DNA of 64,000 nucleotides, taken from the IMG/VR virus record IMGVR_UViG_3300043411_001904. One strand, given 5' to 3'. Positions 6,648-21,035 of the stretch are shown here, piece after piece (position 1 is the stretch's first letter; the number at the start of each line of letters is the position of its first letter). This DNA is from an uncultured virus (IMG/VR IMGVR_UViG_3300043411_001904) (taxonomy: Duplodnaviria; Heunggongvirae; Uroviricota; Caudoviricetes). Made by a program: the position numbers and the translations under genes. The notes beneath the pieces were generated by a model that worked only from the letters and a program-made list of their open reading frames with translations, did no database searches and had not been told where the DNA came from.

Positions 6648-7823
6648 CTAAACCTTATCAATATCAAACATACCTAATTTCTTCATACCCAATAAAAGAT
6701 CATTCAAAAGAGGCTGATAAACTTTTTGATTGTCAAAATTATCTTTAATATACAATTTAGTATACATCTGACTTATCTTTTTACAATGATCAACTAATGA
6801 ATTGAAAAGATAGTGTGGTGATTTTTCTGTCTTTGCTTGAAGAAAAGCATACTTTAACTGGTTAGATGTAAAATCAGAAATATCATTTGGTAACATACCC
6901 GCTGATTTCATTTTAGCTAGAGTATAACTCAAATACAGTCCCCAAGATGACTTAACATCATCAATTGATTTAAGATCAATATTCTTAACAGACTCAGGAG
7001 AGTATTTCAATATATGACCAGAGATAACATTCCAAGCTAATTTTTTATCTCCATCGAATTTAGAAGATACTTGGTCCAAAATATCATCCATCATAATAAC
7101 ATTACCTTCCGAAGACGACATCTTCTTACCATCAACCATAACCAACCCAAGACCAATATGATCAATATCAGGAAACAGAGATTTCAATGATTTAAAATGA
7201 TTATCTTGCTCAAATCCAGTTATGTATAAAGTAGACCCATCTAGTTTTTGTGCCAATGTAACATCTTGATAGAAATAGGAACTAGATCCGTCAGATTTAA
7301 TCCCAACAATCTTTGATCCATTAACATCAAAAACAAGAGTACCTTTATACTCTCCAACACCATCTTCAAGAATGGAAGTATTGACTAGCTTTTGTCCGGA
7401 AGCAAAATGAATTGAATCAATTTTATACCCAAATGATTCACAATGAGATTTAAATTTATCCAAGGCATCATCTTGATCAACCTTACCGGACAAAGTATCA
7501 CCTAAAATAGCAATATATTTTTCCCCAATACCTAATGATTGGATAGATTTTGCAAAAATCAAATTGGATAAGTGTCCCAAGTGTAGATGTTTATTCAAAT
7601 TTGGAGAAAATCCATCAACAAATTCATAAACCTTAGGTGATTCAAAAAGATCATATAGATTTTGATCTCCAATTAGAATATTAGTAAATCCACCCGATTT
7701 CTCAGATTCTAATCCCCAATGAGATATCCAATCAGATACTTTCTGATTCGGATCTCCCCATACACAGAAATTAAATCCCATGTTTTTAGGAGTAGTTTTA
7801 ATATCGGATATCTTGATCTTCAT
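6648..7823 (-). CDS. argS: arginyl-tRNA synthetase (compact, Arg-free)
   Basis: SPNLNKHLHLGH (HIGH), KSDG..Y..QD, YITGFEQDNHF, KMSSSEG (KMSKS), GLYLSYTLAK; start at MKIKIS directly after a TATATTTG promoter. Confidence 0.88.
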   Translation of the reverse strand: MKIKISDIKTTPKNMGFNFCVWGDPNQKVSDWISHWGLESEKSGGFTNILIGDQNLYDLFESPKVYEFVDGFSPNLNKHLHLGHLSNLIFAKSIQSLGIGEKYIAILGDTLSGKVDQDDALDKFKSHCESFGYKIDSIHFASGQKLVNTSILEDGVGEYKGTLVFDVNGSKIVGIKSDGSSSYFYQDVTLAQKLDGSTLYITGFEQDNHFKSLKSLFPDIDHIGLGLVMVDGKKMSSSEGNVIMMDDILDQVSSKFDGDKKLAWNVISGHILKYSPESVKNIDLKSIDDVKSSWGLYLSYTLAKMKSAGMLPNDISDFTSNQLKYAFLQAKTEKSPHYLFNSLVDHCKKISQMYTKLYIKDNFDNQKVYQPLLNDLLLGMKKLGMFDIDKV

Positions 7824-7839
7824 GGAACAAATATACGAA

Positions 7840-9258
7840 TTAAATCCGATCGAATAAAATTTGCTTTTTGCCACCCTTTATTAAAAGGTCAATCTCATCA
7901 CATTTCTCTTTTCCAAACAGCGGAACATATAAAGAATTAACAACATTCAATAGATAATCCAAATTTGATAATTGACTAAGATAATCAGTTGATGACCACG
8001 GCTTATTATCATTAATATACTTATTACCAACTTTAACCAACTCATTAGTAAATCTCAAAGCATCTTTTACTTTGAAATTGTTCCAAGATTCTCTCACTTT
8101 TTTATCATATGACAAAACCAAATCAACAAAATCATTTTGAGGATTAACTAGATTCCCTTCACATTTAATATCAACTAGATGGAGGACCCTAGACACCAAA
8201 TTGCCCCAATCATTCACAATTTCAGAGTTCCAAATATTCTTCAAATCGTCCTCATTCCAGGAAGAATCTGAATATGTACTTAGTCCACCCAAAGCATAGT
8301 ATCTAACGGGATACAATCCATATTTATCTAATTGTTCAATAGGATCTATAACATTCCCAATACTTTTGGAAATCTTAAGTCCATTTTTATCTAGAATCGT
8401 ACCATGCACCAATAACTTTCCGGTTTTCTTAATACCTTCAGATTCCAAAAATGATTGAAATATGATAGCCTGAAATCTAAGATTATCAGGACCACAAATC
8501 TGCACCACATCATTCCAATTAAAATTATCTGTTAAATATCCAGCAGCAAATATGTAATTTAATAAGGCCTCCAACCACACGTAAATGATCTGAGAATCAT
8601 CATCGGGCACTGAAATTCCCCAAGGACATTTTTGTACACTTCTAGACACAGATATGTCACCCACATTATCTATTAGATTATATAACTCATCTAATTTCGA
8701 TTTAGGTTCTAAGAAATTAGGATTTTGCTCAATCCAATTCAATAAAGAATTTCGATATTTAGAAATCTTAAAGAAATAATTCTCTTCTTCTATAATTTCA
8801 ATATTTGTTGTAGGATGATCTAAGCATTTACCATCAACTAGATCAGAGTCTTGTTTGTGTGATTCACATCCTTTGCAATATTTTCCTTTGTAAAATCCTT
8901 TATAAATATCTCCGCGATCTACAAACCTAGACCAAATTATCTTAACTTTCTCATGATGGTCGGGATCAGACGTCTTATAAAAGGAATCATACTCAATACT
9001 AAACCGATCACAGAAATCTTTCCAAGTATGTGTTAAATTCTTAATATATTCCGGAGTTGGAATTCCAATCTCTTGAGATTTCTCCCAGACTTTGGCTCCG
9101 TGTTCATCCAAACCAACATTAAAGTGAACATCATCCCCAATACTCTTGAACCATTTAGAGATAGCATCACCAAGAATAAATTCAAAAGCATGGCCAATAT
9201 GAGGAACTGAGTTCACATATGGCAAAGTGGTGGTTATAAATTTGTTTTTGATTTCTAT
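7840..9258 (-). CDS. metG: methionyl-tRNA synthetase (Met-free, no AUG start)
   Basis: KFITTTLPYVNSVPHIGH, GLDEHG, CxxC knuckle, YVWLEAL, KISKSIGN, NDWGNLVSR; start placed at ATA 9258 (alternatives ATT 9267, ATC 9252, TTG 9225). Confidence 0.9.
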   Translation of the reverse strand: MEIKNKFITTTLPYVNSVPHIGHAFEFILGDAISKWFKSIGDDVHFNVGLDEHGAKVWEKSQEIGIPTPEYIKNLTHTWKDFCDRFSIEYDSFYKTSDPDHHEKVKIIWSRFVDRGDIYKGFYKGKYCKGCESHKQDSDLVDGKCLDHPTTNIEIIEEENYFFKISKYRNSLLNWIEQNPNFLEPKSKLDELYNLIDNVGDISVSRSVQKCPWGISVPDDDSQIIYVWLEALLNYIFAAGYLTDNFNWNDVVQICGPDNLRFQAIIFQSFLESEGIKKTGKLLVHGTILDKNGLKISKSIGNVIDPIEQLDKYGLYPVRYYALGGLSTYSDSSWNEDDLKNIWNSEIVNDWGNLVSRVLHLVDIKCEGNLVNPQNDFVDLVLSYDKKVRESWNNFKVKDALRFTNELVKVGNKYINDNKPWSSTDYLSQLSNLDYLLNVVNSLYVPLFGKEKCDEIDLLIKGGKKQILFDRI

Positions 9259-9266
9259 TGATTTAA

Positions 9267-10445
9267 TTAATAACTTACAGGAAATGGAATAACATCATGA
9301 ATTTTCTGACTCTTACAAATATACATTAAAAGCCTTTCAAATCCTAAACCAAAACCTGAATGAACAACTGATCCCCATCTTCTAGTGGACAAATACCAAT
9401 CCATTTTTTGTATATCAATTCCAGAGCTCATAATTTCTGACTTTAGCTTGTCATAATCATCTTCTCTTTGGGAACCACCAACCAATTCTCCAACCTCTGG
9501 AAATATTAAATCGAAACACAAAGCCTTATCACCTTCGGTTTTCATATAAAATGGCTTCAATGACTTTGGATAATGTGTAATGAAAACAGGCAACTTATAC
9601 TTATCTGATATCAATTTTTCAACTTCAGATCCAATATCCTCACCATATTTAACTCCAAATTCTTTGCAAATTTCATCATATGTCCGAACAATCCAATCAG
9701 GATCAACAATTTTTAAATGATCAGATCCAATTCCCAACTGAGAAAATTCATAATCAGATTTAGTAACCACATATCTAATCGTCTTCTTCAAAAAATCCTC
9801 AGTGAATTTAACTGTTTGATCCAAATCGTAAAAAGCCATCTCAGGCTCAATCATCCAAAATTCAGATAAATGTTTCTTAGTTGCTGATTTCTCAGCTCGA
9901 AAACACGGAGAGAATGTATAAATTTTACCCAATGACATCATACCAACTTCACCATGAAGTTGTCCCGACACAGTTAGTTTTTCATCCATCCAATCTGATT
10001 TTACATCAAACGTCTCTCCGGCTCCTTCACAATCAGCATGGGTAATAATCGGGGTATAATATTGATAAAATCCAAAGTCCTCCAAAGTCCTATGGATAGC
10101 TTGTGTCAAATGATGTCTAATCTTCCATGTAGCTTGAAATCCTTTCGTTCTACCCCTTAGTTCAGGAATGGTTCTAAGGTAATCTAATGTGTGATGTTTT
10201 GGTTGAATAGGATAATCATCATCAGAAGAACCAACAATTTCTATTCGAGATGCCAAAAACTCAGGCAGTCCCTTAGGTGTCATTGAATCCATTCCCTGAC
10301 ATATCAGAGACGACCCAACTTTTGGGTCCCCAATGACCACACAATCTCCATCCCTTGCGGTGACTTGGTGATCTCTAGCACCATCTGTAACTGATAGGAA
10401 CATCAATCCCTTTGATTTCCTAACTGATTTTATCCAACCTTTCAT
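9267..10445 (-). CDS. asnS: asparaginyl-tRNA synthetase (Asn-free)
   Basis: OB-fold start (KGWIKSVR), DCEGAGETF, LTVSGQL, FRAEKS..KHLSEFWMIEPE, GELVGGSQRE, GFGLGFERL. Confidence 0.92.
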   Translation of the reverse strand: MKGWIKSVRKSKGLMFLSVTDGARDHQVTARDGDCVVIGDPKVGSSLICQGMDSMTPKGLPEFLASRIEIVGSSDDDYPIQPKHHTLDYLRTIPELRGRTKGFQATWKIRHHLTQAIHRTLEDFGFYQYYTPIITHADCEGAGETFDVKSDWMDEKLTVSGQLHGEVGMMSLGKIYTFSPCFRAEKSATKKHLSEFWMIEPEMAFYDLDQTVKFTEDFLKKTIRYVVTKSDYEFSQLGIGSDHLKIVDPDWIVRTYDEICKEFGVKYGEDIGSEVEKLISDKYKLPVFITHYPKSLKPFYMKTEGDKALCFDLIFPEVGELVGGSQREDDYDKLKSEIMSSGIDIQKMDWYLSTRRWGSVVHSGFGLGFERLLMYICKSQKIHDVIPFPVSY

Positions 10446-10701
10446 CTTCAATTTGTTTTATTTTGTTGCTCCTTCTTAATACTTTAAGGATTGATCTGAA
10501 TTCTTCTTTATGATCTTCTTTCCATAACGTGGTTCCCGATCCACAATTACCATAAAAAACCGTCAATCCTATTCTATCTCCACTATCTACATACTCCCAA
10601 GATATTGGTGTATTAGGAGATAAAATTCCCGGAAATGTCAACCTAATAGCCTCTAAAATAACAGGATCAGAATTAGGAAATTTAACCTCTTTATACTCCA
10701 T
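10420..10701 (-). CDS. hypothetical protein with C-terminal RxxKI motif
   Basis: RRSNKIKQI near C-terminus. Confidence 0.6.
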   Translation of the reverse strand: MEYKEVKFPNSDPVILEAIRLTFPGILSPNTPISWEYVDSGDRIGLTVFYGNCGSGTTLWKEDHKEEFRSILKVLRRSNKIKQIEDERLDKIS

Positions 10702-10703
10702 TT

Positions 10704-10955
10704 CTATTTTGTATTTCTTTTAACCCAATATTTATAAGCTCCTCTACGACGACCTGTTTCTAACAATCCTTCATGGACAAAAGACATCATAATAACATCC
10801 AACTCAGATAGTTTTTTATCACGATCACGCTTCCACTTATTCAACCATCTTCTTCCACCATAAGGCATATCCAAAAATTGCTCTCTCGTCACTTCTCTAC
10901 CATTTGGAATAGAATTAATGACTTTAAGGATCTCTATTTTCAACTCATCACTCAT
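10704..10955 (-). CDS. hypothetical protein
   Basis: 83-aa ORF in tightly packed run. Confidence 0.55.
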   Translation of the reverse strand: MSDELKIEILKVINSIPNGREVTREQFLDMPYGGRRWLNKWKRDRDKKLSELDVIMMSFVHEGLLETGRRRGAYKYWVKRNTK

Positions 10956-11133
10956 TAATCTGATCTATTTTTAATTCTCTATTATATGGAATCAAGCTTT
11001 TTTCAATCTCTTGGAATATTTCTTCAGCCATTTCTTCACACCCATCCATATTCTCAAGATCTAAAGCGCGAATTCCACGTTGATTCTTGTAGATACACAA
11101 TTTTATATTAGTGATGATTCTTTCCTTATCCAT
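10948..11133 (-). CDS. hypothetical protein with C-terminal RxxKI motif
   Basis: NRELKIDQINE; start moved outside tRNA-Arg. Confidence 0.6.
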   Translation of the reverse strand: MDKERIITNIKLCIYKNQRGIRALDLENMDGCEEMAEEIFQEIEKSLIPYNRELKIDQINE

Positions 11134-11136
11134 GTG

Positions 11137-11208
11137 TGACCTCACCGGGAGTCGAACCCAGATCGAAAATTTAGGAAATTTTAATTCTATCCATTGAACT
11201 ATGAGGTC
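11137..11208 (-). tRNA. tRNA-Arg(CCT)
   Basis: cloverleaf GACCTCA..TGAGGTC, anticodon loop TTCCTAA, TTCGACT T-loop. Confidence 0.92.
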
Positions 11209-11378
11209 ATAATTCTATCTATCTTCTGTTCACGAATATAAGACTTTTTATAGACAGGTTGCCAAATTTCCGGATATTTAAGAAATTCTCCCGATGTATA
11301 GGGTTCAAAATCTCCTTTCCTTCTTCCACATCCTGGATATTCTCTAATAAGGACAAATCCTTCGATTTTATCTTTCAT
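11199..11378 (-). CDS. hypothetical protein with C-terminal RxxKI motif
   Basis: IREQKIDRI; stop codon lies inside tRNA-Arg. Confidence 0.6.
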   Translation of the reverse strand: MKDKIEGFVLIREYPGCGRRKGDFEPYTSGEFLKYPEIWQPVYKKSYIREQKIDRIMTS

Positions 11379-11394
11379 ATTGTTAGTATTTTTG

Positions 11395-11480
11395 TACCGG
11401 AGGTTGGAGTCGAACCAACAATAGGAGTAAACCAATCCCCTTATGAGGAGGACACCATTACCACATCGGATCACACCGGC
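11395..11480 (-). tRNA. tRNA with CAT anticodon (Met or Ile2) on a long-variable-arm body
   Basis: TCCTC-CTCATAA-GGGGA; about 15-nt variable region; GTTGG-TTCGACT-CCAAC. Confidence 0.8.
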
Positions 11481-11773
11481 ATTAACTGCAAATTAATCTC
11501 TCTTATTATAATTTTATTATCAATATGTTGATGTTTGTATGATTTAGATATTATTGATCTAAAGGCATTTTCAATTACTGTCTTCTCTTCAGACGAAAAT
11601 TCATTAAAATCTTCACCCAAGCCTGAATTGCCATTATCATCACTGAATATACACTCACCTGTCCACCTTCTATAGATTGAAATATACTTAAAACCGTCTG
11701 TATTGGAATTAAGATCCCAATTTCCATATTGGTTATTTTGAATATCCTTTAGAAATTTTCTAATATTTTTCAT
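11471..11773 (-). CDS. hypothetical protein
   Basis: 100-aa ORF; stop inside the downstream tRNA. Confidence 0.55.
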   Translation of the reverse strand: MKNIRKFLKDIQNNQYGNWDLNSNTDGFKYISIYRRWTGECIFSDDNGNSGLGEDFNEFSSEEKTVIENAFRSIISKSYKHQHIDNKIIIREINLQLMPV

Positions 11774-11984
11774 CGAACACCTTTTCTATTTTTTCTAATC
11801 GTCTCTGTGAGATAAACTTCGTAAAATAAGATACCACTAAAGTAGCAACATATCCTTTAACACTCATATCTAAATTACACTTATCTATATGTAACTTGAC
11901 AAATTCAAAACATTCAGATTTAATTAAATCATCACTAACGTAGTGCCTTTCCGCATATCTATCAATTATATCTTTAATATACAT
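11760..11984 (-). CDS. hypothetical protein with C-terminal RxxKI motif
   Basis: RRLEKIEKVF. Confidence 0.55.
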   Translation of the reverse strand: MYIKDIIDRYAERHYVSDDLIKSECFEFVKLHIDKCNLDMSVKGYVATLVVSYFTKFISQRRLEKIEKVFDEKY

Positions 11985-11988
11985 ATTA

Positions 11989-12531: not shown

Positions 12532-12564
12532 ATCTTATATATCATAAATCAATTTTATTTTTAG

Positions 12565-12637
12565 AGCTAGAACCCAGAATTTAACTGGGATTACGTCATT
12601 ACCAATGACGTGTAATCAACCTTTATACGATTCCAGC
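12565..12637 (-). tRNA. tRNA-Thr(GGT)
   Basis: GCTGGAA..TTCTAGC; CGTCA-TTGGTAA-TGACG. Confidence 0.85.
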
Positions 12638-13002: not shown

Positions 13003-13007
13003 TCATG

Positions 13008-13088
13008 TACCTTGGGTGGGAATCGAACCCACACTCCTTTCAGAACGCGATTTTGAGTCGCGGGTGTCTACCGTTCCACCACCAAGGC
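13008..13088 (-). tRNA. tRNA-Leu(CAA)
   Basis: class II cloverleaf; CGCGA-CTCAAAA-TCGCG. Confidence 0.93.
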
Positions 13089-13435: not shown

Positions 13436-13438
13436 TTG

Positions 13439-13509
13439 AGGTCAGGGTGAGATTTGAACTCACGTACGGGGTTTTGCAGACCCCTGCCTCGCCTCTCGGC
13501 CACCTGACC
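13439..13509 (-). tRNA. tRNA-Cys(GCA)
   Basis: GGGGT-CTGCAAA-ACCCC; U73. Confidence 0.93.
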
Positions 13510-13511
13510 AA

Positions 13512-14231
13512 TTAAGTCTCTAATATAGTAAATTTATTATTCCACCAACAGGGAATATAATTATTAATTTTACAATGTTCAATAAGTGATTTTTTCTTCT
13601 CATCAACAGTTAAAAAATATAATGGTCTTGAGTATTTATTAGTAGGATTTTTACTTATAACAGATTTACACTCACACAAATAAATTTTTCCATTACTATC
13701 TTTTATTATAAAGTCGGGAGTATATCTCCTGATTTTACCATCATATAAGTATTCTATGTGGTCATAAAATCTATCCAACTCGATAACACTGTAATTTTTA
13801 CAAAAGAATGTAAGGAAATTAAATTCCAATTTTGAATCACATCTTACGGATTTTCCATCAAATATAAATTCACATCTAATCGAATTAAACGAGAATTTAC
13901 CCTCAGATCTAGCTTTGGTAGATTTTATTGAAGCATTGGTTCTATAAGACTCATTTTCCCAAGTTCTTTTTATTGAACAACTATGGGAACACGTCTTTTG
14001 ATTTCTTTTACTAAAAGTAACAATGAAATCTCTACTACAATAAAGACAAATTTTGTTAATTTTTGGATTTCCAGAATTCTTTTTTAGAAGAGTTTTACTA
14101 ACCTTAGTATTTATCTCCAATCTCTTATTTCTTGTTGAAAACGATCTAGAACAAACACGAGAGCAAAACTCTCCACTTGAATATTGACTATATTTCATTC
14201 CATCTTTTTCTCCACAATTTTTACAAATCAT
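13512..14231 (-). CDS. Zn-finger plus TnsA-like PD-(D/E)XK endonuclease (putative homing endonuclease)
   Basis: CxxC..CSxxC repeats; DSKLE..YTPDF..ECK. Confidence 0.75.
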   Translation of the reverse strand: MICKNCGEKDGMKYSQYSSGEFCSRVCSRSFSTRNKRLEINTKVSKTLLKKNSGNPKINKICLYCSRDFIVTFSKRNQKTCSHSCSIKRTWENESYRTNASIKSTKARSEGKFSFNSIRCEFIFDGKSVRCDSKLEFNFLTFFCKNYSVIELDRFYDHIEYLYDGKIRRYTPDFIIKDSNGKIYLCECKSVISKNPTNKYSRPLYFLTVDEKKKSLIEHCKINNYIPCWWNNKFTILET

Positions 14232-14274
14232 AAGATATATATCAAATTCGAACCTCTACCTTATCGTATTTTAG

Positions 14275-14345
14275 TACCCCAAGGTGAAATCGAATCACCA
14301 CCTTCACTACGTCAAAGTGATACGCTACCACTACGCCATTGGGAT
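14275..14345 (-). tRNA. tRNA-Val(GAC)
   Basis: TCACT-TTGACGT-AGTGA. Confidence 0.88.
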
Positions 14346-14445: not shown

Positions 14446-14448
14446 TAG

Positions 14449-14531
14449 AAGCGGGAATCAGATTCGAACTGATGTTCTCTTTCGAGTTAGGGCTTATGAG
14501 GCCCCTGGTACCATCTCCAGTCGATCCCGCG
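14449..14531 (-). tRNA. initiator-like tRNA-Met(CAT) with extra variable hairpin
   Basis: C1:U72 mismatch; GGGC-CTCATAA-GCCC; CTC-GAAA-GAG extra arm. Confidence 0.75.
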
Positions 14532-14563
14532 ATTTAATTATACAAGTATAGTAAAATTTGTTG

Positions 14564-14634
14564 TACCCCGAGATGAATTCGAATCATCACCTCCGCCATG
14601 TAAAAACGGAACGCTACCATTACGCCATCGGGGC
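14564..14634 (-). tRNA. tRNA-Val(TAC)
   Basis: CCGTT-TTTACAT-GGCGG. Confidence 0.88.
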
Positions 14635-14639
14635 ATTAG

Positions 14640-14725
14640 TGATTCTGGTAGGAATCGAACCTACGTTAACCTATTCGGCCTTCCGGTTGTAAGCCGGACG
14701 TTCTTAACCACTGAACTACAGAATC
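14640..14725 (-). tRNA. tRNA-Val(TAC) with long variable arm
   Basis: TCCGG-CTTACAA-CCGGA; GGCC-GAATA-GGTT extra arm. Confidence 0.8.
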
Positions 14726-14808: not shown

Positions 14809-14813
14809 TCTTG

Positions 14814-14888
14814 TTGGATCAAATGGATTCGAACCATTGGCCTTCCCAATCTTGTTAGGGACGTTCTTCCTGACTGAACTACAATCCA
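14814..14888 (-). tRNA. tRNA-like gene, undetermined anticodon
   Basis: intact acceptor, D and T arms; enlarged loop TAACAAGATT. Confidence 0.7.
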
Positions 14889-14894
14889 ATTTTG

Positions 14895-14971
14895 TTGCGA
14901 CGAATGGATTTGAACCACTGACCTTTCCCCTAATAAGGTGGGAATGCTCTCCCTGACTGAGCTACATCGCA
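14895..14971 (-). tRNA. tRNA-like gene, undetermined anticodon (10-nt loop)
   Basis: TTCCC-ACCTTATTAG-GGGAA with intact other arms. Confidence 0.7.
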
Positions 14972-14974
14972 GTA

Positions 14975-15361
14975 TTAATTTATTTGATTATCTGATCTAA
15001 AATGTCTTCGTGGGTCTATATCAAAATCATCCGGATCTTCAATTTTTTCAACATTTTTAGATTTCTTCTTAGCTAAAGAAATCACTTTCTTTATAAGCCT
15101 TTTACTAACTTCCAATTCCTTATCTTCTAGGTACATTGAATAAGAATTAGAAAAAAATGGATCAAAAAAAGATATTAAAACAACTAAAAACTCATAATTA
15201 CCTATCCCGAATTTCCAACTTTCTGATTTAGTCATACTAGGCATATAACTAGAATAACTATAATTTTTCAAATTATTCTTTGGATCTTTAAGTTGTTGTA
15301 TCAACTCTTCAACAATGTCATCATCTTTTTTCTTGGAAAAGAAACTTTCTAAATATTTCAT
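14975..15361 (-). CDS. hypothetical late protein (MKYLESF tag)
   Basis: TAATATATA just upstream. Confidence 0.65.
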   Translation of the reverse strand: MKYLESFFSKKKDDDIVEELIQQLKDPKNNLKNYSYSSYMPSMTKSESWKFGIGNYEFLVVLISFFDPFFSNSYSMYLEDKELEVSKRLIKKVISLAKKKSKNVEKIEDPDDFDIDPRRHFRSDNQIN

Positions 15362-15431
15362 TATCCTATATATTATTTCTGAAACTTATTCACCTAGTAG
15401 TTTGAATTTCTTCAGGGACCACTAGGAATTG

Positions 15432-15503
15432 AGGATTCACTCGAACTCGAATCGAGGACACATGGGTACGAATCACGTATTTTTCCGACTAAACTATGAA
15501 TCC
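15432..15503 (-). tRNA. tRNA-Thr(CGT)
   Basis: GGATTCA..TGAATCC; loop TTCGTAC. Confidence 0.82.
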
Positions 15504-15504
15504 A

Positions 15505-16161
15505 TTAATAACTTTTATCTTCATTATACCTAACCATTCTAGAATGTCTCCCTTTACCCCTGTTCAAAGATTTGTAAGTTGGAGTCAATGAATGACAATT
15601 TGGACACAATAATTTCAAATTAGATAAATCATTATTTTCTGAATTTCCATCAATATGTTCTATTTCGATTGGAACCTTTCCTGTTGTCAGATTAATTTGA
15701 CACCATCCACAATCCATACATTTATTACCATGTGTTTTAATCAGATATTTTTTAATCGACCTACTAGAACCATTTCCACTTACAATTATTAAATTTCTTA
15801 ATTCTTCTTTATGTAAATCATTGCAATTCTTTGAACAATATTTAACATTCCCCTTACCAATTATCTCAGAGTCACAAACTACACATTTCAATCTCCACTT
15901 CACTCGGGTCCTATTAACATTAATAGCTGAACATCTTCTGCTACAAAACTTTCTACCATCTGAAACAATACATTTAAATTCCTTATTACAATTTTCACAT
16001 TTAACTGTTTCTCTTTTAGAGTCATAGAATTTTGATGAAATAGATAACTTTGATTTAATTCTAACTATTGTAGATCTAGAAACTCCCAATTCCTTAGAAA
16101 TTCTAAAATTTGACATCCCCTGATCAACTAACTCAAATACATCAGCCCATAATTTTTCCAT
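15505..16161 (-). CDS. HNH homing endonuclease with HTH and Zn fingers
   Basis: ISKELGVSRSTI HTH; EHIDGNSENN..NLKLLCPNCH. Confidence 0.9.
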   Translation of the reverse strand: MEKLWADVFELVDQGMSNFRISKELGVSRSTIVRIKSKLSISSKFYDSKRETVKCENCNKEFKCIVSDGRKFCSRRCSAINVNRTRVKWRLKCVVCDSEIIGKGNVKYCSKNCNDLHKEELRNLIIVSGNGSSRSIKKYLIKTHGNKCMDCGWCQINLTTGKVPIEIEHIDGNSENNDLSNLKLLCPNCHSLTPTYKSLNRGKGRHSRMVRYNEDKSY

Positions 16162-16206
16162 ACCCTATATATTCAGAAGTGTGAGCTTCCCTTGGAAAGG
16201 GAGTAG

Positions 16207-16294
16207 AGCCGGGAGTGGGATTCAAACCCACGATGGTCGCTTTCGCTATACTAACTTACAAGGTTAGGGCCTTCGTTCTCTTGGCTATCCCGGC
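16207..16294 (-). tRNA. tRNA-Thr(TGT) with long variable arm
   Basis: CTAAC-CTTGTAA-GTTAG; GC-GAAA-GC extra arm. Confidence 0.8.
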
Positions 16295-16309
16295 AATTAT
16301 TTAATAATG

Positions 16310-16657
16310 CTATTTACCTTTCTCTCTATTAAGTCTAACTTCATTCTCTGGAAAAAGAATAACACAGTTAAGAGGATTTTTATAATCTATAGTTTGCCAA
16401 GTTCCATTTTTCCTGACATGGGGAATACCACATTCCTTTAAAACATTAGATATCTTAATATACTCATTACTTAGTATATCAACTACATTAGTGTCTTTAT
16501 TATAATCATATTCTATACCTTCCTCGTCAAGAAATTGTATTAGCTTATCAACATCACCATTTGAAGAATCATAATATCCCGTATAGGGATTAGGTTCTGT
16601 CATAAGTATAGGAGCATTTTCATTAACAACAAAAGAATCAAATTTTTTAATATTCAT
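16310..16657 (-). CDS. hypothetical protein (MNIKKFDSF tag)
   Basis: recurrent N-terminal motif. Confidence 0.65.
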   Translation of the reverse strand: MNIKKFDSFVVNENAPILMTEPNPYTGYYDSSNGDVDKLIQFLDEEGIEYDYNKDTNVVDILSNEYIKISNVLKECGIPHVRKNGTWQTIDYKNPLNCVILFPENEVRLNREKGK

Positions 16658-16672
16658 ATTTTCTATATTTAT

Positions 16673-16897
16673 TTATCCTATTCCATTACTATTTTCTAAT
16701 TCTTCAAGAGAATCATATCGACCAATAACATCCAAGTCCGGATCTAGAAAATAGAATTTTTCATCATCCACTCCATATCCAATGTATTCAACATACCCAT
16801 CCCTTTCAGGATCAAAGATATCGATAATCATAATGGTTTCATCTTTAACAAAATCTCCAACAGTTATCTTCTCTAAGAATTTTTTCAGGTGCTTCAT
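16673..16897 (-). CDS. hypothetical protein (MKHLKKFLE tag)
   Basis: recurrent N-terminal motif. Confidence 0.65.
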   Translation of the reverse strand: MKHLKKFLEKITVGDFVKDETIMIIDIFDPERDGYVEYIGYGVDDEKFYFLDPDLDVIGRYDSLEELENSNGIG

Positions 16898-16901
16898 TGG
16901 T

Positions 16902-17123
16902 TTAATTATTTTGAGTAAGTCTACCGGATTCTATCAATTTCAGAACCTTTCTTTTAGTGAATCGATAAGCAGTAGCTCCTTCCATAAATCTTTCTTGAAA
17001 TTGCATTGATTTCGCTTCCTTAGCAGAATCATCCATTATTTTGATCATTGAATCAAGCCAATCAACGATATTTTGATTATCTAATAGATATAGATATTTC
17101 TTATCTGATAATTCATTTTTCAT
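16902..17123 (-). CDS. hypothetical protein
   Basis: TAATATATA upstream. Confidence 0.55.
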   Translation of the reverse strand: MKNELSDKKYLYLLDNQNIVDWLDSMIKIMDDSAKEAKSMQFQERFMEGATAYRFTKRKVLKLIESGRLTQNN

Positions 17124-17138
17124 ATTCTATATATTAAG

Positions 17139-17210
17139 AGGTCAATGTTGGAATCGAACCAACCTTCAAGAGTTTGCAATTCTTGACCTAAGCCACTCGG
17201 ACACTTGACC
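17139..17210 (-). tRNA. tRNA-Cys(GCA)
   Basis: loop TTGCAAA; U73. Confidence 0.85.
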
Positions 17211-17212
17211 AT

Positions 17213-17407
17213 TTAAATACCCTTAGACAATTTTAGTCTATTTCTAAGTTCTTCTTCTTCAAAATCCCCACCAAAATCAGAAATATGATTATATCTCTTT
17301 AATCTATCAATAATTTGATCAATTGATAGATTATCATATCTCTCATCAGCCTTAACAAGACGTTCAAGAATATCAACTCTCCAATCTATCCAATTTGGTC
17401 TTTTCAT
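17213..17407 (-). CDS. hypothetical protein
   Basis: 64-aa ORF in packed run. Confidence 0.5.
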   Translation of the reverse strand: MKRPNWIDWRVDILERLVKADERYDNLSIDQIIDRLKRYNHISDFGGDFEEEELRNRLKLSKGI

Positions 17408-17411
17408 GATT

Positions 17412-17612
17412 CTACCAAATAGCTGCCCACATAGGTAGAGAAATACCCGTTACTTTCTTAAGTACATCATGATCAGCAACTTCATCATATTGATGAGAAT
17501 CAATCACCTCTAGCTCTTCTTCATTCAAAGAATCAATTATGTTGATATCATTATGATTAAGCGAACTTAATAGTTGCGAACGCCTTTCCTCTGTAAGATT
17601 GTTATCAAACAT
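17412..17612 (-). CDS. hypothetical protein
   Basis: 66-aa ORF downstream of a TATATTTG promoter. Confidence 0.5.
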   Translation of the reverse strand: MFDNNLTEERRSQLLSSLNHNDINIIDSLNEEELEVIDSHQYDEVADHDVLKKVTGISLPMWAAIW

Positions 17613-17671
17613 AATAAATTTTATAATTAGACGACAAATATATCAAATAACTTTCATAAAAACAATTCTTG

Positions 17672-17749
17672 TCGGTGGAAAGAGATTCGAACTCTTATTT
17701 TCAACCAATTACCTTACTCCTGCATATCAGACAGGGTGGATACCCACCG
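17672..17749 (-). ncRNA. D-armless tRNA-like RNA with GAT anticodon
   Basis: CGGTGGG/TCCACCG acceptor; no D hairpin; CCTGT-CTGATAT-GCAGG; long variable segment; AAGAG-TTCGAAT-CTCTT. Confidence 0.7.
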
Positions 17750-17753
17750 AAAT

Positions 17754-17818
17754 TGGGATTGGGCCTTTAACCACTTTACAACAGTATCTGTTGAACTAGA
17801 CATCGAACCTAGATCCCA
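17754..17818 (-). ncRNA. circularly permuted tRNA-like RNA (YrlA/Y-RNA-like order)
   Basis: TGGGAT/ATCCCA closing stem; T-arm, then closed hairpin, then AGTGGTTAA D-like loop. Confidence 0.5.
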
Positions 17819-17820
17819 TG

Positions 17821-17894
17821 TTGGCCTGGTCGGTAACGATCCGACTACCTCGAAATTATCAGTTTCGCGCTCTAACCATCTGAGCTACAAGCCA
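17821..17894 (-). tRNA. tRNA-Ile(GAT)
   Basis: CGAAA-CTGATAA-TTTCG. Confidence 0.9.
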
Positions 17895-17953
17895 AAATTG
17901 ATAGATCCAAACCTCTTTAATGGAGGACCTTTCTATCTTTAGGTTTTTTAATC

Positions 17954-18301
17954 TTAAAAATCTAGTGTAACTTTATTCCTTTCATTTAGAACGAAAATTG
18001 TCGTGTTGGAATATGATTCACCTGATGGATGAGCCATCACAACATAATATCCACCAGATTCTCCCATAAACAATTGTTCACCTTTCGCAGAATACGATGA
18101 AATTGTATAATCATAATAGTCATCACAATTTCCATCTGTAAATATTCGTAAATTATCGGAATATTTACCCGATCCTATCCCCCAAGGAGAATCATTTTTC
18201 TCAACTGGAGAATTATTATAACTATCATATCCAATCAGTTTCATAATATCCTTATGAACAACTTTGGATTCTTTAATGTGGTTTAGAACTTTTTCAATCA
18301 T
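17954..18301 (-). CDS. hypothetical protein
   Basis: 115-aa ORF after a TATATTTG promoter. Confidence 0.6.
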   Translation of the reverse strand: MIEKVLNHIKESKVVHKDIMKLIGYDSYNNSPVEKNDSPWGIGSGKYSDNLRIFTDGNCDDYYDYTISSYSAKGEQLFMGESGGYYVVMAHPSGESYSNTTIFVLNERNKVTLDF

Positions 18302-18342
18302 TTTACAAATATAAGAAAATATTCTAAATCTTCACAATTATG

Positions 18343-18415
18343 CGGGTCCAATAGGGTACGATCCTATAATGTCTGATTAACAGTCAGAAGTGATGTCCGT
18401 TTTCACCATAGACCC
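18343..18415 (-). tRNA. tRNA-Asn(GTT)
   Basis: TCTGA-CTGTTAA-TCAGA; G73. Confidence 0.88.
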
Positions 18416-18440
18416 ATTTTTATTCGAACCAACGATTTTG

Positions 18441-18526
18441 AGGGGATGGAGAATTACGATATCTCGACCCTCGTTTTAACAGAACGACGCTCTCGGACCG
18501 AAGTCACACCTCTGAGCTACATCCCC
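18441..18526 (-). tRNA. tRNA with GTT (Asn) anticodon and a UUCG hairpin inserted in the D-loop
   Basis: GCTC..GAC-TTCG-GTC..GAGC; TCGTT-CTGTTAA-AACGA; U73. Confidence 0.78.
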
Positions 18527-18650
18527 AAAATTTTATTTATAATTGTGTCAATACTATCAGACCTAAAACACCCTTTAGTTATCTCAATGGAATTGGCTGA
18601 GATTGCCAACACTCATAATCAGGGGACGGTGACACCCAACCACCCAAACA

Positions 18651-18860
18651 TCACCGTCCCCGATAATACGTCTTCAAAAAATCAAGTAATTCCAAGAAAT
18701 AAAATATCACAATACATCCAATCACATAAATAGGCCAAAATATAGATTTAAGAAGTCCATATTTAGTTTCTGTAAAAACACTTGAGATAAATGCCATAGT
18801 TCCAAATACTGAATAAATCAATACTCCAATAACCAATAGTATTATACTTAATGTACTCAT
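18651..18860 (-). CDS. small membrane protein
   Basis: two hydrophobic helices; SIFWP motif. Confidence 0.6.
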   Translation of the reverse strand: MSTLSIILLVIGVLIYSVFGTMAFISSVFTETKYGLLKSIFWPIYVIGCIVIFYFLELLDFLKTYYRGR

Positions 18861-19066
18861 TATCTTGCTCCACCAGCTGTCATTTTATCCGAGGCATCTT
18901 TGAAGAACTTAGCCAAGTCCTTCAAATCAACTCCTGTTATCAGAATATTCGTATTAGAGTATCCAAAAAACCCGAAATCAATATGAATATATCCATACTC
19001 ATCAACTTTAAACTTAAATCCTCCGTTATCAACGTGGAAGTATTTTTCATGAATTATCTTCTCCAT
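18860..19066 (-). CDS. hypothetical protein
   Basis: TAATG coupling to next gene. Confidence 0.55.
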   Translation of the reverse strand: MEKIIHEKYFHVDNGGFKFKVDEYGYIHIDFGFFGYSNTNILITGVDLKDLAKFFKDASDKMTAGGAR

Positions 19067-19079
19067 ATTTATTATTTTG

Positions 19080-19149
19080 CTCCATCAATAGGATTCGAAC
19101 CTATACCTCCGAGATAAATCTCGGTGTGCCACCGTGACACCACAATGAA
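19080..19149 (-). tRNA. tRNA-like gene with collapsed anticodon loop
   Basis: CCGAGA-TTTA-TCTCGG; other arms intact. Confidence 0.7.
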
Positions 19150-19226
19150 TAGAGAATAAACCCTTCTACCAAAAAAGATTTACTCTCAAGAGATTGGACA
19201 ATTGGTAGACAACCCGCCACTCTTTG

Positions 19227-19299
19227 TAGTCCCACCGGGATTCGAACCCAGACCCATTGTTTAGAAGACAATGACGCTTTCCAGTTACGCCATGGAACC
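19227..19299 (-). tRNA. tRNA-Arg(TCT)
   Basis: ATTGT-CTTCTAA-ACAAT. Confidence 0.92.
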
Positions 19300-19309
19300 A
19301 TGTTTGTTG

Positions 19310-19393
19310 TCCAAGAGGAAGGATTCGAACCTCCGTAAAAGATCCACAAACGCAAATCGTTGTGAAAATTGACTTCCAATAGTCTACTCTCGG
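19310..19393 (-). tRNA. tRNA-like gene with extended anticodon arm
   Basis: CCGAGAG/CTCTTGG acceptor; D and T arms present; TTCACAA..TTGTGGA long arm. Confidence 0.65.
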
Positions 19394-19426
19394 TTAATTA
19401 TAATACAAATATACTAAAAAATAATT

Positions 19427-20134
19427 CTAATCCAAAATTCCATTTGATTTTAATTCTTTAATCACTCCGGATATAGTTCCTTTACTACAATTTAATTCTT
19501 TTCTAATTTCACTCTGTTTCATTCCATTACGATACATATCTAGAACAACATTTCTATCTATTTTAGATCTCAATTCTTTAATATTCGTTGATTTTAATAA
19601 TATTTCTTTCTTGTTAAGTTCAAAGAACTCAAAACTTGAATGTATTTTAATGTGACAATTGGCACATAAAACTACACACTTACTCAGCTCATTAGAAATA
19701 TCTTCACTAATATCCAATATTGATCTTAAGATTATATTAATTGATTTCAATTTGAATTTCTTATCTCTTAAATGGTGAAAATGAAGAGAGCAATATTTAT
19801 CATATCCACACTTCTCACATCTTATAACATTTTTATATTCCAAAAGTATTTTCTTGTTATTTCTCTGTCTATTATTAATTTGATCACCAAAATGTAATTC
19901 ATGATGGCAATTATGACATATCAATTCACATTTCATAATTTCCCTTTCAATAATTGACATTCTATGATTTCTAATATCATTTATATCAAATTCTTTATCA
20001 ATTGGATTAATATGATGAAAGCATAACTTAAATATATCTGATTCTTCACATTTAATACATTTCCCACCCATTGAATTTATTACTTTAATTCTTTTTGCTA
20101 ATTTAAGTATCTTCGTGCTAATAATCTTTTTCAT
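19427..20134 (-). CDS. tandem-HNH endonuclease with C-terminal HTH
   Basis: two CxxC..FHH..C..LCxNCH units; IRKELNCSKGTIS. Confidence 0.88.
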   Translation of the reverse strand: MKKIISTKILKLAKRIKVINSMGGKCIKCEESDIFKLCFHHINPIDKEFDINDIRNHRMSIIEREIMKCELICHNCHHELHFGDQINNRQRNNKKILLEYKNVIRCEKCGYDKYCSLHFHHLRDKKFKLKSINIILRSILDISEDISNELSKCVVLCANCHIKIHSSFEFFELNKKEILLKSTNIKELRSKIDRNVVLDMYRNGMKQSEIRKELNCSKGTISGVIKELKSNGILD

Positions 20135-20188
20135 AAGTTCAAGTCGTTTATCTATATATATTAAATAAATAACTCGAACTTTTTCTAG

Positions 20189-20278
20189 TACCTCAGGTCG
20201 GAGTCGAACCGACAGCGTTTACCACGAGGGTCTGCGCTCCTAAGGCGCAGGTGTTTCATCCAGTTTCACCACTGAGGC
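20189..20278 (-). tRNA. tRNA-Leu(TAG)
   Basis: TGCGC-CTTAGGA-GCGCA; long variable arm. Confidence 0.92.
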
Positions 20279-20287
20279 AAATAAATT

Positions 20288-20427
20288 AGAAATATCTCCC
20301 AACCTCCGCGGTTAGTCAATTATACACACTCATGACTACTAGATCTAGACTCGCGAATCTAGAACCTCACCATGAACACATAACACTCTTACCCACCTGA
20401 TCAGGGTCGTCATCATAAGAGATTTCT
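20288..20427 (-). ncRNA. unclassified rod-like structured RNA of about 140 nt
   Basis: AGAAATCTC..GAGATATTTCT closing stem; TCTAGATTC/GAGTCTAGA apical stem. Confidence 0.5.
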
Positions 20428-20431
20428 TCAG

Positions 20432-20513
20432 TACGTGTGGAGAGACTTGAACTCTCATATCTTTTCAGACACCACTATCTCGAAGTGGCATGTATGCATT
20501 CCATCACACACGT
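20432..20513 (-). tRNA. tRNA-Leu(GAG)
   Basis: CCACT-TCGAGAT-AGTGG (atypical C33); long variable arm. Confidence 0.82.
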
Positions 20514-20521
20514 ATATATTT

Positions 20522-20616
20522 TCCAACGGGAATAGATCCAAATACCCACCATCTTCAGGATCTTCCGTATCCCCATACGGGCGGTCATCTTTTGGAAAAC
20601 CGACATTCCCATTGGA
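20522..20616 (-). ncRNA. unclassified multibranch structured RNA of about 95 nt
   Basis: 12-bp closing stem TCCAATGGGAAT/ATTCCCGTTGGA with internal hairpins. Confidence 0.5.
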
Positions 20617-20648
20617 CTAGGACTAAATTAATAATCCTAGTAATTCTA

Positions 20649-20741
20649 TTAGATCAGTCATCCTCTTAACCTACTGGTTGCCGCAATGTTTACCATCGCG
20701 ACCACCCGGGCTTGAACCGTATTTTCTTCAATGTGATCTAA
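20649..20741 (-). ncRNA. second permuted tRNA-like (Y-RNA-like) RNA
   Basis: TTAGATCA/TGATCTAA closing stem; CGG-TTCAAGC-CCG T-like arm, long hairpin, AGTAGGTTAA D-like loop. Confidence 0.45.
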
Positions 20742-20746
20742 ATATG

Positions 20747-20837
20747 TAGTCCAGGTCGGAGTCGAACCGACAACGTTTAACCTCTTGGGTATGCGATCTT
20801 AAGCCGCACGCGTCTCTACCAGTTTCGCCACTGGACC
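20747..20837 (-). tRNA. tRNA-Leu(TAA)
   Basis: TGCGG-CTTAAGA-TCGCA; long variable arm. Confidence 0.92.
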
Positions 20838-20850
20838 AAATACTAACAAT

Positions 20851-20862
20851 ATTTCAATGAAC
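20851..20862 (-). promoter_or_regulatory. boxA-like antitermination element
   Basis: GTTCATTGAAAT just before the first tRNA; similar motifs near 31500, 31950 and 32890. Confidence 0.55.
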
Positions 20863-20884
20863 TTTTATTCTACTTGTCTAAAAC

Positions 20885-20918
20885 AAAAAACCCGACTTTC
20901 TTTTCAGATTGTCGGGTT
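20885..20918 (-). terminator. attenuator intrinsic terminator
   Basis: AACCCGAC..GTCGGGTT followed by a U-tract. Confidence 0.8.
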
Positions 20919-20942
20919 GGTTTCCTTTTTTAATTCAGATGA

Positions 20943-21035
20943 TTACTCCGAATCTAGGTTATAACCCGAGCCTTTGGTTCTTACACAGAGTGTATTCACC
21001 ATCCTCAAATTAATATTTAGATTTAGCGTTTTCAT
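20943..21035 (-). CDS. leader peptide of the tRNA/aaRS region
   Basis: MKTLNLNINLRMVNTLCVRTKGSGYNLDSE; contains TCGGGTT complementary to the terminator 5' arm; TAATATATA and TATATTTG promoters upstream. Confidence 0.8.
   Translation of the reverse strand: MKTLNLNINLRMVNTLCVRTKGSGYNLDSE

Follow-up and report, generated by a model that had tools for sequence, protein, structure and literature searches.

Multivalent leader-peptide attenuators are known from the enterobacterial ilvGMEDA, thr, his, trp and leu operons. They comprise a promoter, a codon-rich short open reading frame (ORF), a four-segment pairing scheme and a terminator before the first structural gene, and the speed of the ribosome on the test codons gauges the supply of charged transfer RNA (tRNA). 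The present analysis concerns an element of the same kind in a 64,000-nucleotide (nt) stretch of DNA, hereafter the window, from an uncultured Caudoviricetes virus (IMG/VR record IMGVR_UViG_3300043411_001904). Judged from its sequence, this element is a conserved leader-peptide transcription attenuator. It probably gates an array of 22 tRNA genes, with read-through into the genes for an asparaginyl-tRNA synthetase (AsnRS), a probable methionyl-tRNA synthetase (MetRS) and an arginyl-tRNA synthetase-like protein (ArgRS-like), besides the starts that these genes have of their own. The window leader shares the four-segment layout and the order of parts (leader, terminator, first gene) with the classical attenuators. 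However, it precedes tRNA genes, and by read-through would precede synthetases, rather than biosynthetic enzymes, and a single leader covers eight amino acids and about 13 species of anticodon.

T-box riboswitches of Firmicutes bind uncharged tRNA directly, without translation, and switch a terminator and antiterminator before synthetase genes. The window element is similar in that tRNA charging would be sensed by such a switch ahead of synthetases, but it needs a translated ORF and has no T-box model match. Huge and jumbo phages carry tens of tRNAs in arrays, with homing endonucleases between them and scattered synthetases, all of which recur here. Phage tRNA genes are usually viewed as a passive codon-usage supplement or as spares against tRNA-cutting defences. 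The available part of a jumbo phage review describes synthetase complements as not conserved, and in that part neither attenuator control nor a rule of cognate synthetases behind arrays appears (PMC7824862). Leader-peptide attenuation of synthetase operons is itself known for pheST, trpS and leuS, according to the accessible portion of the source (PMC1262725). The pheST type also has a leader with cognate codons upstream of an aminoacyl-tRNA synthetase, whereas the phage block opens with tRNA genes and closes with the synthetases, its leader covers several amino acids and the synthetases have promoter motifs of their own. A full-text literature search, which covered its sources in part, returned no published account of leader-peptide attenuator control of phage tRNA arrays.

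The window is part of a 136,741-bp contig of a large uncultured phage with a G+C content of 31-34%. Evidence for a phage comes from tail-fibre and collagen-repeat proteins, phage lysozyme, PhoH, Hsp20, NadR/PnuC and several HNH endonucleases. Megablast of the 14-kb block against GenBank phages gave a single 34-nt match and no near relative, and a MetRS-based search of IMG/VR did not find close relatives. All called genes from 22931 to 6648 lie on the minus strand, and none of the seven plus-strand ORFs tested within the block has a PHROG match. The initial annotation had described about 14 kb of one-strand genes as a unit of sensor, tRNA array and synthetases; the co-oriented block stands, whereas several of its details (the tRNA-Asn count, an RNase P RNA and a CCA enzyme) do not. 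The block runs from the leader through the tRNA genes, with endonuclease genes and 16 small ORFs intervening, to the AsnRS, MetRS and ArgRS-like genes (Table 1), and forms the translation island of this phage. Judged from the TAnnTTTG-type promoters, the phage probably infects a Bacteroidota host.

The leader ORF is promoter-proximal and is followed by an intrinsic terminator with an 8-bp, G+C-rich stem, which lies 24 nt past the leader stop and 51 nt ahead of the first tRNA. Leader codons 3-20 read ACG CTA AAT CTA AAT ATT AAT TTG AGG ATG GTG AAT ACA CTC TGT GTA AGA ACC, and encode Leu, Asn, Ile, Thr, Val, Arg, Cys and Met. The amino-acid set of the array covers 18 of the 19 codons at positions 2-20 (binomial P 2.3e-6, against a background share of 42.5% of residues in 14 window ORFs), and the array anticodons can read all 18 matching codons. 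The sole codon in this range without a clear array partner is AAA (Lys) at position 2. In the fold of the full leader (minimum free energy -42.8 kcal/mol, z -4.89), segment 1 pairs with segment 2 and segment 3 with segment 4, so that the terminator is formed; when the 3' arm of the terminator is left out, segment 2 pairs with the terminator 5' arm instead (2:3 pairing). Rfam leader families, riboswitches and T-box models gave no match at E<=1 between 6000 and 23000. No promoter motif was found between the terminator and the first tRNA, a gap of 6-51 nt across sites. Codon enrichment in a promoter-proximal ORF and a terminator before the first tRNA are found together with an exclusive antiterminator that overlaps the ORF and an upstream anti-antiterminator. 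The 'sensor' proposed in the initial annotation is borne out as a leader-peptide attenuator of this form: its test codons fit the array tRNAs, its pairings are alternative and it is conserved in relatives.

Relatives were collected with an alignment of 22 ArgRS-like proteins, which retrieved 38 IMG/VR loci, and the array regions of five phage records of 369-676 kb (G001-G005) were added; the duplicate loci L012, L014 and L015 were dropped before counting. The five records have 17-68 Rfam tRNA matches each and are classed by IMG/VR and CheckV as phage records, 97-100% complete, two of them as proviruses. This classification speaks against the ArgRS-like-bearing contigs of 400-780 kb being small bacterial genomes or giant eukaryotic viruses, as do the tail-fibre, lysozyme and HNH genes of the window itself. 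Leaders were sought by finding a terminator within 100 nt before a same-strand tRNA and then the longest ATG ORF ending just upstream. This yielded 34 sites in 53 non-duplicate sequences, 27 of which passed a filter (ORF length 12-70 codons, stop-to-hairpin distance 15-45 nt, minimum stem 8 bp). The longest-ORF rule picked the wrong ORF in L044, where the true leader was found by eye, and two likely false sites were kept (L049:3931, and L023:20919 with a truncated array). Since mis-picked and likely false sites were left in, the permutation tests are conservative.

Averaged over leaders, a fraction of 0.57 of codons 2-20 encodes an amino acid that is represented in the leader's own array, compared with 0.25+-0.03 for permuted pairings (n=24). 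In a conservative set with a single representative of the window-homologous (type-A) leaders, the values are 0.53 and 0.21+-0.03 (n=21). None of 200,000 permutations reached the observed value in either set. The correspondence can be read from individual loci. L040 has one leader with ..SRSRSSRS.. before an array of Ser and Arg tRNAs and another with ..IYIGYIAEGGYEAG.. before Glu, Tyr, Gly, Ile and Ala; ..QQVQQQQ.. in L039 precedes four tRNA-Gln genes, and ..IAMIIRMRIIR.. in L008 precedes Arg, Ile and Met. Similarly, ..TTATTAPQQGAGQGRTAQPRG.. in L050 is found with Thr, Gly, Ala, Gln, Pro and Arg, ..TTYQTQKQQPKGGKPYG.. in L013 with Gln, Lys, Pro, Gly, Tyr and Thr, and MKTTLSLSLSLSLSLSGWTNRAM in L044 with Leu and Ser.

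Type-A leaders in L002, L027, L028, L054 and L088 keep their peptide through synonymous changes (e.g., Leu as CTC or TTA). Furthermore, in three of the five to six homologous leaders (L002, L027 and L028) the partner segment and the terminator arm change together, which may reflect compensatory change, with GGAATCTGGGTT accompanying AAACCCAGATTC in L002 and GTTCGGGT accompanying ACCCGAAC in L028. The antiterminator duplex beats shuffled sequences (z<-2) at 14 of the 27 filtered sites. A degenerate DNA pattern for type-A leaders, applied to IMG/VR, matched 119 loci, two of which had a tRNA within 400 nt and one a true leader (L088); the pattern was too loose.

The array of tRNA genes predicted by ARAGORN extends from 20837 to 11136, entirely on the minus strand. 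Its span of 9.7 kb is stretched by three endonuclease genes and the 16 small ORFs, some with promoter motifs of their own; none of these small ORFs has a family match in Pfam or PHROG. The Rfam tRNA model recovers 14 of the 22 genes with its own filters and 18 at 29 bits or more with laxer filters, leaving tRNA-Leu(UAG), tRNA-Leu(GAG) and both CAU genes without support. The array contains Leu UAA, GAG, UAG and CAA; Arg UCU and CCU; Asn GUU; Ile GAU; two Cys GCA; Thr UGU, CGU and GGU; and two Val UAC with one GAC. Completing the set are two atypical CAU genes, an 85-nt gene assigned to Ala, a gene whose anticodon loop has 6 nt and two neighbouring genes whose anticodon loops are enlarged. The two tRNA-Arg genes of the initial annotation are present, whereas only one of its two tRNA-Asn genes holds, the other candidate being the 6-nt-loop gene. 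Its two CAT-anticodon tRNAs do exist as genes, but both are long and atypical and fail the Rfam tRNA score.

Unusual tRNA forms recur among the relatives. A long variable arm despite an anticodon other than Leu, Ser or Tyr is seen in 51 of 362 ARAGORN tRNAs, many of them well formed (Asn 8, Met 8, Thr-UGU 6, Cys 5, others), including the long tRNA-Val(UAC), tRNA-Thr(UGU) and both CAU genes in the window and genes in L002, L008, L016, L027, L028, L034 and others. Such a tRNA often lies next to a normal-length twin of the same anticodon. The reverse also occurs: of 70 tRNAs that have a Leu, Ser or Tyr anticodon, 17 measure less than 80 nt. The commonest long forms, Asn and Met, correspond to the amino acids of two synthetases encoded in the window. 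The adjacent enlarged-loop genes at 14813-14888 and 14894-14971 have one and three extra anticodon-arm bases, with loops of 8-10 nt, and 6-nt-loop genes resembling that of the window also occur in L002 and L008. BLAST did not assign orthology of the odd tRNAs across loci, as the sequences were too divergent. A CUA-anticodon tRNA is found in a relative (L029:17466-17541; ARAGORN 'Pyl', an amber reader). The window ORFs read normally under code 11, and therefore nothing points to recoding.

The asnS-metG-argS trio of the initial annotation is confirmed to different degrees. The asnS gene scores above its family cut-off, and metG is supported by Pfam and falls below the NCBIfam threshold, whereas argS reaches only 45.9 bits against the TIGR00456 equivalog cut-off of 261.65. 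The MetRS-like protein has HIGH and KISKS motifs. On the minus strand at 9225-9266, the conserved MetRS N-terminus IEIKNKFITTT (KFITTT) is encoded upstream of the first TTG, without an ATG, GTG or TTG, and the homologue in L031 begins with ATG (MGKIFLTTT). Translation of the window gene may begin at ATT, ATA or ATC, or the protein may be without its first strand.

At least 584 proteins of about 391 amino acids (aa) make up the separate family that includes the ArgRS-like protein, whose HLGH and KMSSS motifs are invariant in the 22-protein alignment. A profile of the family searched against the Protein Data Bank gave five matches, all of them ArgRS chains (best E 1.6e-6). The AlphaFold2 model (predicted local distance difference test score 92.9, predicted template modelling score 0.91) was compared with solved structures using Foldseek, in which the top 19 chains were ArgRS (E down to 1.8e-16, TMq 0.59-0.71), followed by cysteinyl-tRNA synthetase. 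The solved ArgRS structures 1f7u, 1bs2, 1iq0, 4q2t and 5yym share with it the class I fold, the HxGH motif (here HLGH), the KMSKS-like loop (KMSSS) and a C-terminal helical domain. However, these proteins have 570-607 aa compared with 391 aa, and identity is 13-18%. The C-terminal helices align weakly to yeast ArgRS residues 544-606, and in the profile alignment about 70 residues precede HxGH, as against about 147 in yeast ArgRS. Sequence and model together suggest that the 391-aa protein is a putative pared-down ArgRS. Another gene in the window encodes a glutamyl-tRNA synthetase-like (GluRS-like) catalytic core of 259-264 aa without an anticodon-binding domain, and a 42%-identical relative of it follows the type-A array in L088.

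Synthetase genes also follow arrays in relatives; the cases were picked as they were met and are not a census. Loci L008 and L009 each have tRNA-Arg genes behind an attenuator whose leader contains Arg codons, and an ArgRS-like ORF begins 15 nt past the last tRNA. Genes resembling leucyl-tRNA synthetase (LeuRS) start 16 and 22 nt past a tRNA-Leu in L044 and L048, within or behind Leu-rich arrays. The LeuRS-like proteins (L044:4228-5691, 487 aa; L048:6619-7887, 422 aa) score 401.6 and 399.5 bits with leuS_bact against a cut-off of 548.4; a normal LeuRS has about 840 aa, and the editing domain is presumably missing. In L043 an aspartyl-tRNA synthetase (AspRS; 416 bits, above the 353 cut-off) lies 643 nt after an Asp/Cys/Glu/Ala array whose leader contains ADCADE. 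Non-cognate neighbours also occur, with ArgRS-like genes after tRNA-Ile (L023) and tRNA-Ser (L029) and the GluRS-like gene of L088. Among the 35 non-redundant ArgRS-like loci, a same-strand tRNA lies within 700 nt upstream in 10 and a same-strand tRNA-Arg within 2 kb in eight; Arg tRNAs make up 21 of the 161 tRNAs in these loci. Linkage of the modules in related phages, on which the proposed unit was to be checked, is found for cognate synthetases behind attenuator-gated arrays, whereas the Asn-Met-Arg trio is not conserved.

The motif TATATTTG, which we take to fit the -7 element TAnnTTTG of Bacteroidota promoters, occurs 19 times in the window, always on the minus strand, where 9.5+-3.1 copies would be expected on both strands together; none of 100 shuffles reached 19. 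The internal promoter motifs that had been noted at 19406, about 18305, 17635 and 7828 are all found, and further copies lie at 21089, 13859 and 9316. At six minus-strand genes (2118, 7823, 18301, 28057, 39785 and 60510) the motif is followed after 3-5 nt by the ATG of an ORF of 81-391 aa, and therefore leaderless transcripts are suggested; this spacing is probably a promoter design for leaderless mRNA.

Between 23000 and 6000, no minus-strand hairpin other than the attenuator terminator and those of tRNAs resembles a terminator. An ORF begins 4 nt past tRNA-Arg(CCU), and overlapping genes continue up to asnS. Codons tested in the leader include those of tRNAs up to 9.7 kb downstream (AGG with CCU at 11136, ACC with GGU at 12564 and ATG with CAU at 11394), and therefore the test would be sensible only if read-through reaches these genes. 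That the sensor and the array belong together can be stated with high confidence, and the synthetases are plausibly under attenuator control too. Such a sensor-tRNA-synthetase unit has support because the attenuator is conserved, no other terminator precedes the end of the ArgRS-like gene, and cognate synthetases lie behind the arrays of relatives.

By analogy with trp and ilv attenuation, we infer the following switch logic. The promoter at 21096-21089 would drive the leader ORF, and segment 2 would pair either with the upstream segment 1 or with the 5' arm of the terminator hairpin. When charged cognate tRNAs are scarce, the ribosome would stall on the test codons, the antiterminator would form and the polymerase would enter the tRNA array. 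When decoding is fast, or the leader is not translated, the terminator would form. On read-through, with no further terminator in its path, the polymerase would also transcribe the AsnRS, MetRS and ArgRS-like genes, besides transcription from their own promoters. More tentatively, the block could act as a closed-loop homeostat of charged tRNA, in which the 18 test codons of the leader would sample about 13 kinds of tRNA and any shortage opens the tRNA genes along with the synthetases that would charge three of them; we lean against this stronger form.

Several results count against a leader-gated array with read-through into the synthetases. Four of the ARAGORN tRNAs fail the Rfam model and three have abnormal anticodon loops, the antiterminator scores no better than shuffles at 13 of the 27 sites, and synonymous-codon specificity is modest (266 of 292 codons readable, 245.8 expected). 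The synthetases are 10-14 kb away from the attenuator. No tRNA lies within 10 kb at 19 of the 35 ArgRS-like loci, although 16 have one; AsnRS is beside the ArgRS-like gene only in L002 and MetRS within 10 kb in four loci. Type-A leaders hold Asn, Met and Arg codons even without adjacent synthetases (L027, L028, L054), and therefore the leader tracks tRNAs, not enzymes. A rather unlikely alternative confines attenuator control to the front of the array (three tRNA-Leu genes plus the first HNH gene, as far as the motif at 19413), has the rest transcribed from internal promoters and attributes the co-location to repeated insertion of translation genes at a permissive array 3' end rather than to co-regulation. 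This would agree with the TATATTTG copies at 19413, 18313, 17642, 9323 and 7835, which together with that at 13866 could feed most of the block independently, and with the motif set (nominally 4 nt) before the ATG of the ArgRS-like, GluRS-like and four other genes. Because of the internal motifs, one right at the ArgRS-like start, the synthetases need not depend on the attenuator. Synthetase content behind type-A arrays also varies, and in the closest relative, the colinear L001, tRNA-Arg(CCU) is followed by a small ORF and the ArgRS-like gene, with no asnS or metG. However, control of the head only would leave the testing of codons for tRNAs as far as 9.7 kb away and the lack of an intervening terminator unaccounted for, and synthetase ORFs 15-22 nt past array tRNAs in relatives leave no room for a promoter.

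The initial annotation had interpreted the unit as a coordinated counter-defence against tRNA-directed immunity or starvation. In its specific form, the attenuator would fire when host anticodon nucleases or other tRNA-depleting enzymes destroy tRNAs, and phage tRNAs and synthetases would replace what is lost. Phage tRNAs can evade anticodon nucleases via loop changes, and the array includes several tRNAs whose anticodon loops are unusual or whose variable arms are long; an attenuator that gauges the supply of charged tRNA would be expected to respond to cleavage, and a polynucleotide kinase (PNK)-like gene is present in the window. Nevertheless, no RNA ligase or other repair partner was seen among window ORFs of at least 100 aa, nothing links the eight amino acids to known nuclease targets, and such a design would also be of use under codon-usage mismatch, host shut-off or starvation. 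The sequence does not separate counter-defence from plain tRNA shortage for phage codons, and counter-defence is judged an unlikely specific purpose. It is highly improbable that no sensing takes place, with the short ORF being an ordinary small gene with a terminator and the tRNAs and synthetases a constitutive supply island. AT-rich short ORFs are common, as are clusters of tRNAs with homing endonucleases and scattered synthetases in large phages, but leader composition would then not follow the array across unrelated arrays as it does in the permutation tests, the partner segment within the ORF would not be expected to change together with the terminator arm, and the short gap between terminator and first tRNA offers no promoter motif to a separate supply island.

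Table 1. Features of the translation island and of other parts of the window, in the order of minus-strand transcription within the island (L numbers denote related loci).
Feature	Position	Strand	Evidence or remark
Promoter-like -7 motif TATATTTG (TAnnTTTG type), heads unit	21089..21096	-	Homologous position in L002, L027, L028, L016, L023
Leader ORF, 30 codons + stop, encodes MKTLNLNINLRMVNTLCVRTKGSGYNLDSE	20943..21035	-	ATG 54 nt after TATATTTG
Segment 1, AAUUUGAGG, codons 9-11	21003..21011	-	Pairs with segment 2 in full-length fold
Segment 2, CUCGGGUUA, codons 22-25, antiterminator partner of terminator 5' arm	20962..20970	-	Duplex -10.8 kcal/mol, z -2.78
Intrinsic terminator: AACCCGAC, 14-nt loop, GTCGGGTT, T-run	20880..20918 (hairpin 20918-20889)	-	Folding
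tRNA-Leu(UAA), 92 nt	20746..20837	-	Rfam 45.7 bits
tRNA-Leu(GAG), 83 nt	20431..20513	-	ARAGORN alone, no Rfam tRNA match
tRNA-Leu(UAG), 91 nt	20188..20278	-	ARAGORN alone, no Rfam tRNA match
HNH homing endonuclease gene, 235 aa	19427..20134	-	phrog_2255 2e-28
Internal promoter-like TATATTTG, 12 nt ahead of tRNA starting 19393	19406..19413	-	Motif search
Atypical tRNA, 85 nt (ARAGORN Ala UGC)	19309..19393	-	Rfam 36.3 bits
tRNA-Arg(UCU)	19226..19299	-	Rfam 55.4 bits
tRNA-like gene, 6-nt anticodon loop	19079..19149	-	Rfam 36.6 bits
tRNA-Asn(GUU), sole Asn tRNA	18342..18415	-	Rfam 53.3 bits
Internal promoter-like TATATTTG	18306..18313, 17635..17642, 13859..13866	-	Motif search
tRNA-Ile(GAU)	17820..17894	-	Rfam 57.8 bits
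tRNA-Cys(GCA)	17138..17210	-	Rfam 34.8 bits
tRNA-Thr(UGU), long variable arm, 89 nt	16206..16294	-	Rfam 50.9 bits
HNH homing endonuclease gene, 218 aa	15505..16161	-	phrog_1271 2.8e-21
tRNA-Thr(CGU)	15431..15503	-	Rfam 51.3 bits
tRNA, enlarged anticodon loop (ARAGORN 'Stop' UUA)	14894..14971	-	Rfam 50.7 bits
tRNA, one extra base in anticodon arm (ARAGORN Leu AAG)	14813..14888	-	Rfam 46 bits
tRNA-Val(UAC), long variable arm, 87 nt	14639..14725	-	Rfam 70.2 bits
tRNA-Val(UAC), 72 nt	14563..14634	-	Rfam 56.9 bits
Atypical CAU-anticodon tRNA, 84 nt	14448..14531	-	ARAGORN alone, no Rfam tRNA match
tRNA-Val(GAC)	14274..14345	-	Rfam 57.1 bits
Endonuclease-like gene, 239 aa	13512..14231	-	Weak: TnsA-like N 4.8e-5; phrog_1271 HNH 1.7e-4
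tRNA-Cys(GCA)	13438..13509	-	Rfam 59.9 bits
tRNA-Leu(CAA)	13007..13088	-	Rfam 53.5 bits; 88% identical to L001 copy
tRNA-Thr(GGU)	12564..12637	-	Rfam 52.4 bits
Atypical CAU-anticodon tRNA, 87 nt, long variable arm	11394..11480	-	tRNA-Sec model alone, 28.3 bits, below threshold
tRNA-Arg(CCU), last of array	11136..11208	-	Rfam 59.8 bits; next ORF starts 4 nt on
Three tightly packed small ORFs, tRNA-Arg to asnS	10420..11145	-	No Pfam/PHROG matches
AsnRS, 394 aa	9267..10451	-	TIGR00457 387.2 bits (cut-off 342.6); 70% identical to L002 copy
Promoter-like TATATTTG in asnS 3' end, upstream of metG	9316..9323	-	Motif search
MetRS-like, short form, 461 aa from TTG	7840..9225	-	PF09334 236 bits; TIGR00398 308.8 bits, below 336.35 cut-off
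TATATTTG, 4 nt ahead of ArgRS-like ATG, leaderless-type promoter	7828..7835	-	Motif search
Compact ArgRS-like class I synthetase, 391 aa from ATG 7823	6648..7823	-	HLGH + KMSSS motifs
GluRS-like gene	27278..28072	-	gltX_bact 225 bits, GluQRS models 119-123 bits, all below cut-off
GOLLD RNA 3' domain	30733..31125	-	RF02032 252 bits (gathering score 150)
Radical SAM enzyme	32950..33882	-	HxsC and prokaryotic viperin-family models, 50 bits each, sub-threshold
Generic nucleotidyltransferase match	43857..44528		phrog_1614 2e-9
PNK-like kinase	61256..61750		AAA_33 7e-19, phrog_505 3e-13

Elsewhere in the window, the initial annotation had placed an RNase P RNA, a CCA-like nucleotidyltransferase and a PNK-like kinase. 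Across the 64 kb, all RNase P families stay below their gathering scores, and the large RNA at 30733-31125 instead matches GOLLD. The 5' domain of GOLLD probably fills 31125-31960. Upstream of it, TATATTTG occurs at 31967-31974 and 32122-32129, around an 88-nt tRNA-like gene at 32017-32104 (ARAGORN Gly CCC). The GOLLD class is described, in the part of the report available, as lying near phage tRNA islands (bioRxiv 10.1101/2024.12.08.627333). The window conforms in that its phage has tRNA arrays and the 3' domain follows a tRNA-like gene downstream, but this GOLLD RNA is not in the attenuator unit, being 10 kb away behind other genes. The kinase is plausible, whereas for the CCA-like enzyme there is no more than a generic nucleotidyltransferase match.

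Other genes include a radical SAM enzyme with weak similarity to the models listed in Table 1. A NadR-like nicotinamide mononucleotide adenylyltransferase/kinase, a PnuC transporter, a 706-aa TonB-dependent-receptor-plug protein and an OmpH/Skp-like chaperone are encoded at 35076-38711 (minus strand) and 53097-53621 (plus strand), and form a set of host-envelope and NAD auxiliary genes in a phage.

If the proposed control is correct, the phage gauges decoding speed and makes tRNAs on demand, apparently together with matching charging enzymes, and the question of why large phages carry tRNAs and synthetases becomes testable with simple reporters. An annotation rule also follows from the sequence, whereby leader content predicts array decoding. 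Orthogonal translation systems could draw on the odd tRNAs and on the compact ArgRS-like and LeuRS-like enzymes as candidate parts. Should the homeostat reading hold, the design would recur across huge phages, with ArgRS-like, LeuRS-like and AspRS genes 15-643 nt behind their own arrays, and huge phages would carry self-regulating, partly host-independent decoding modules that are switched on when the host tRNA pool is depleted or attacked.

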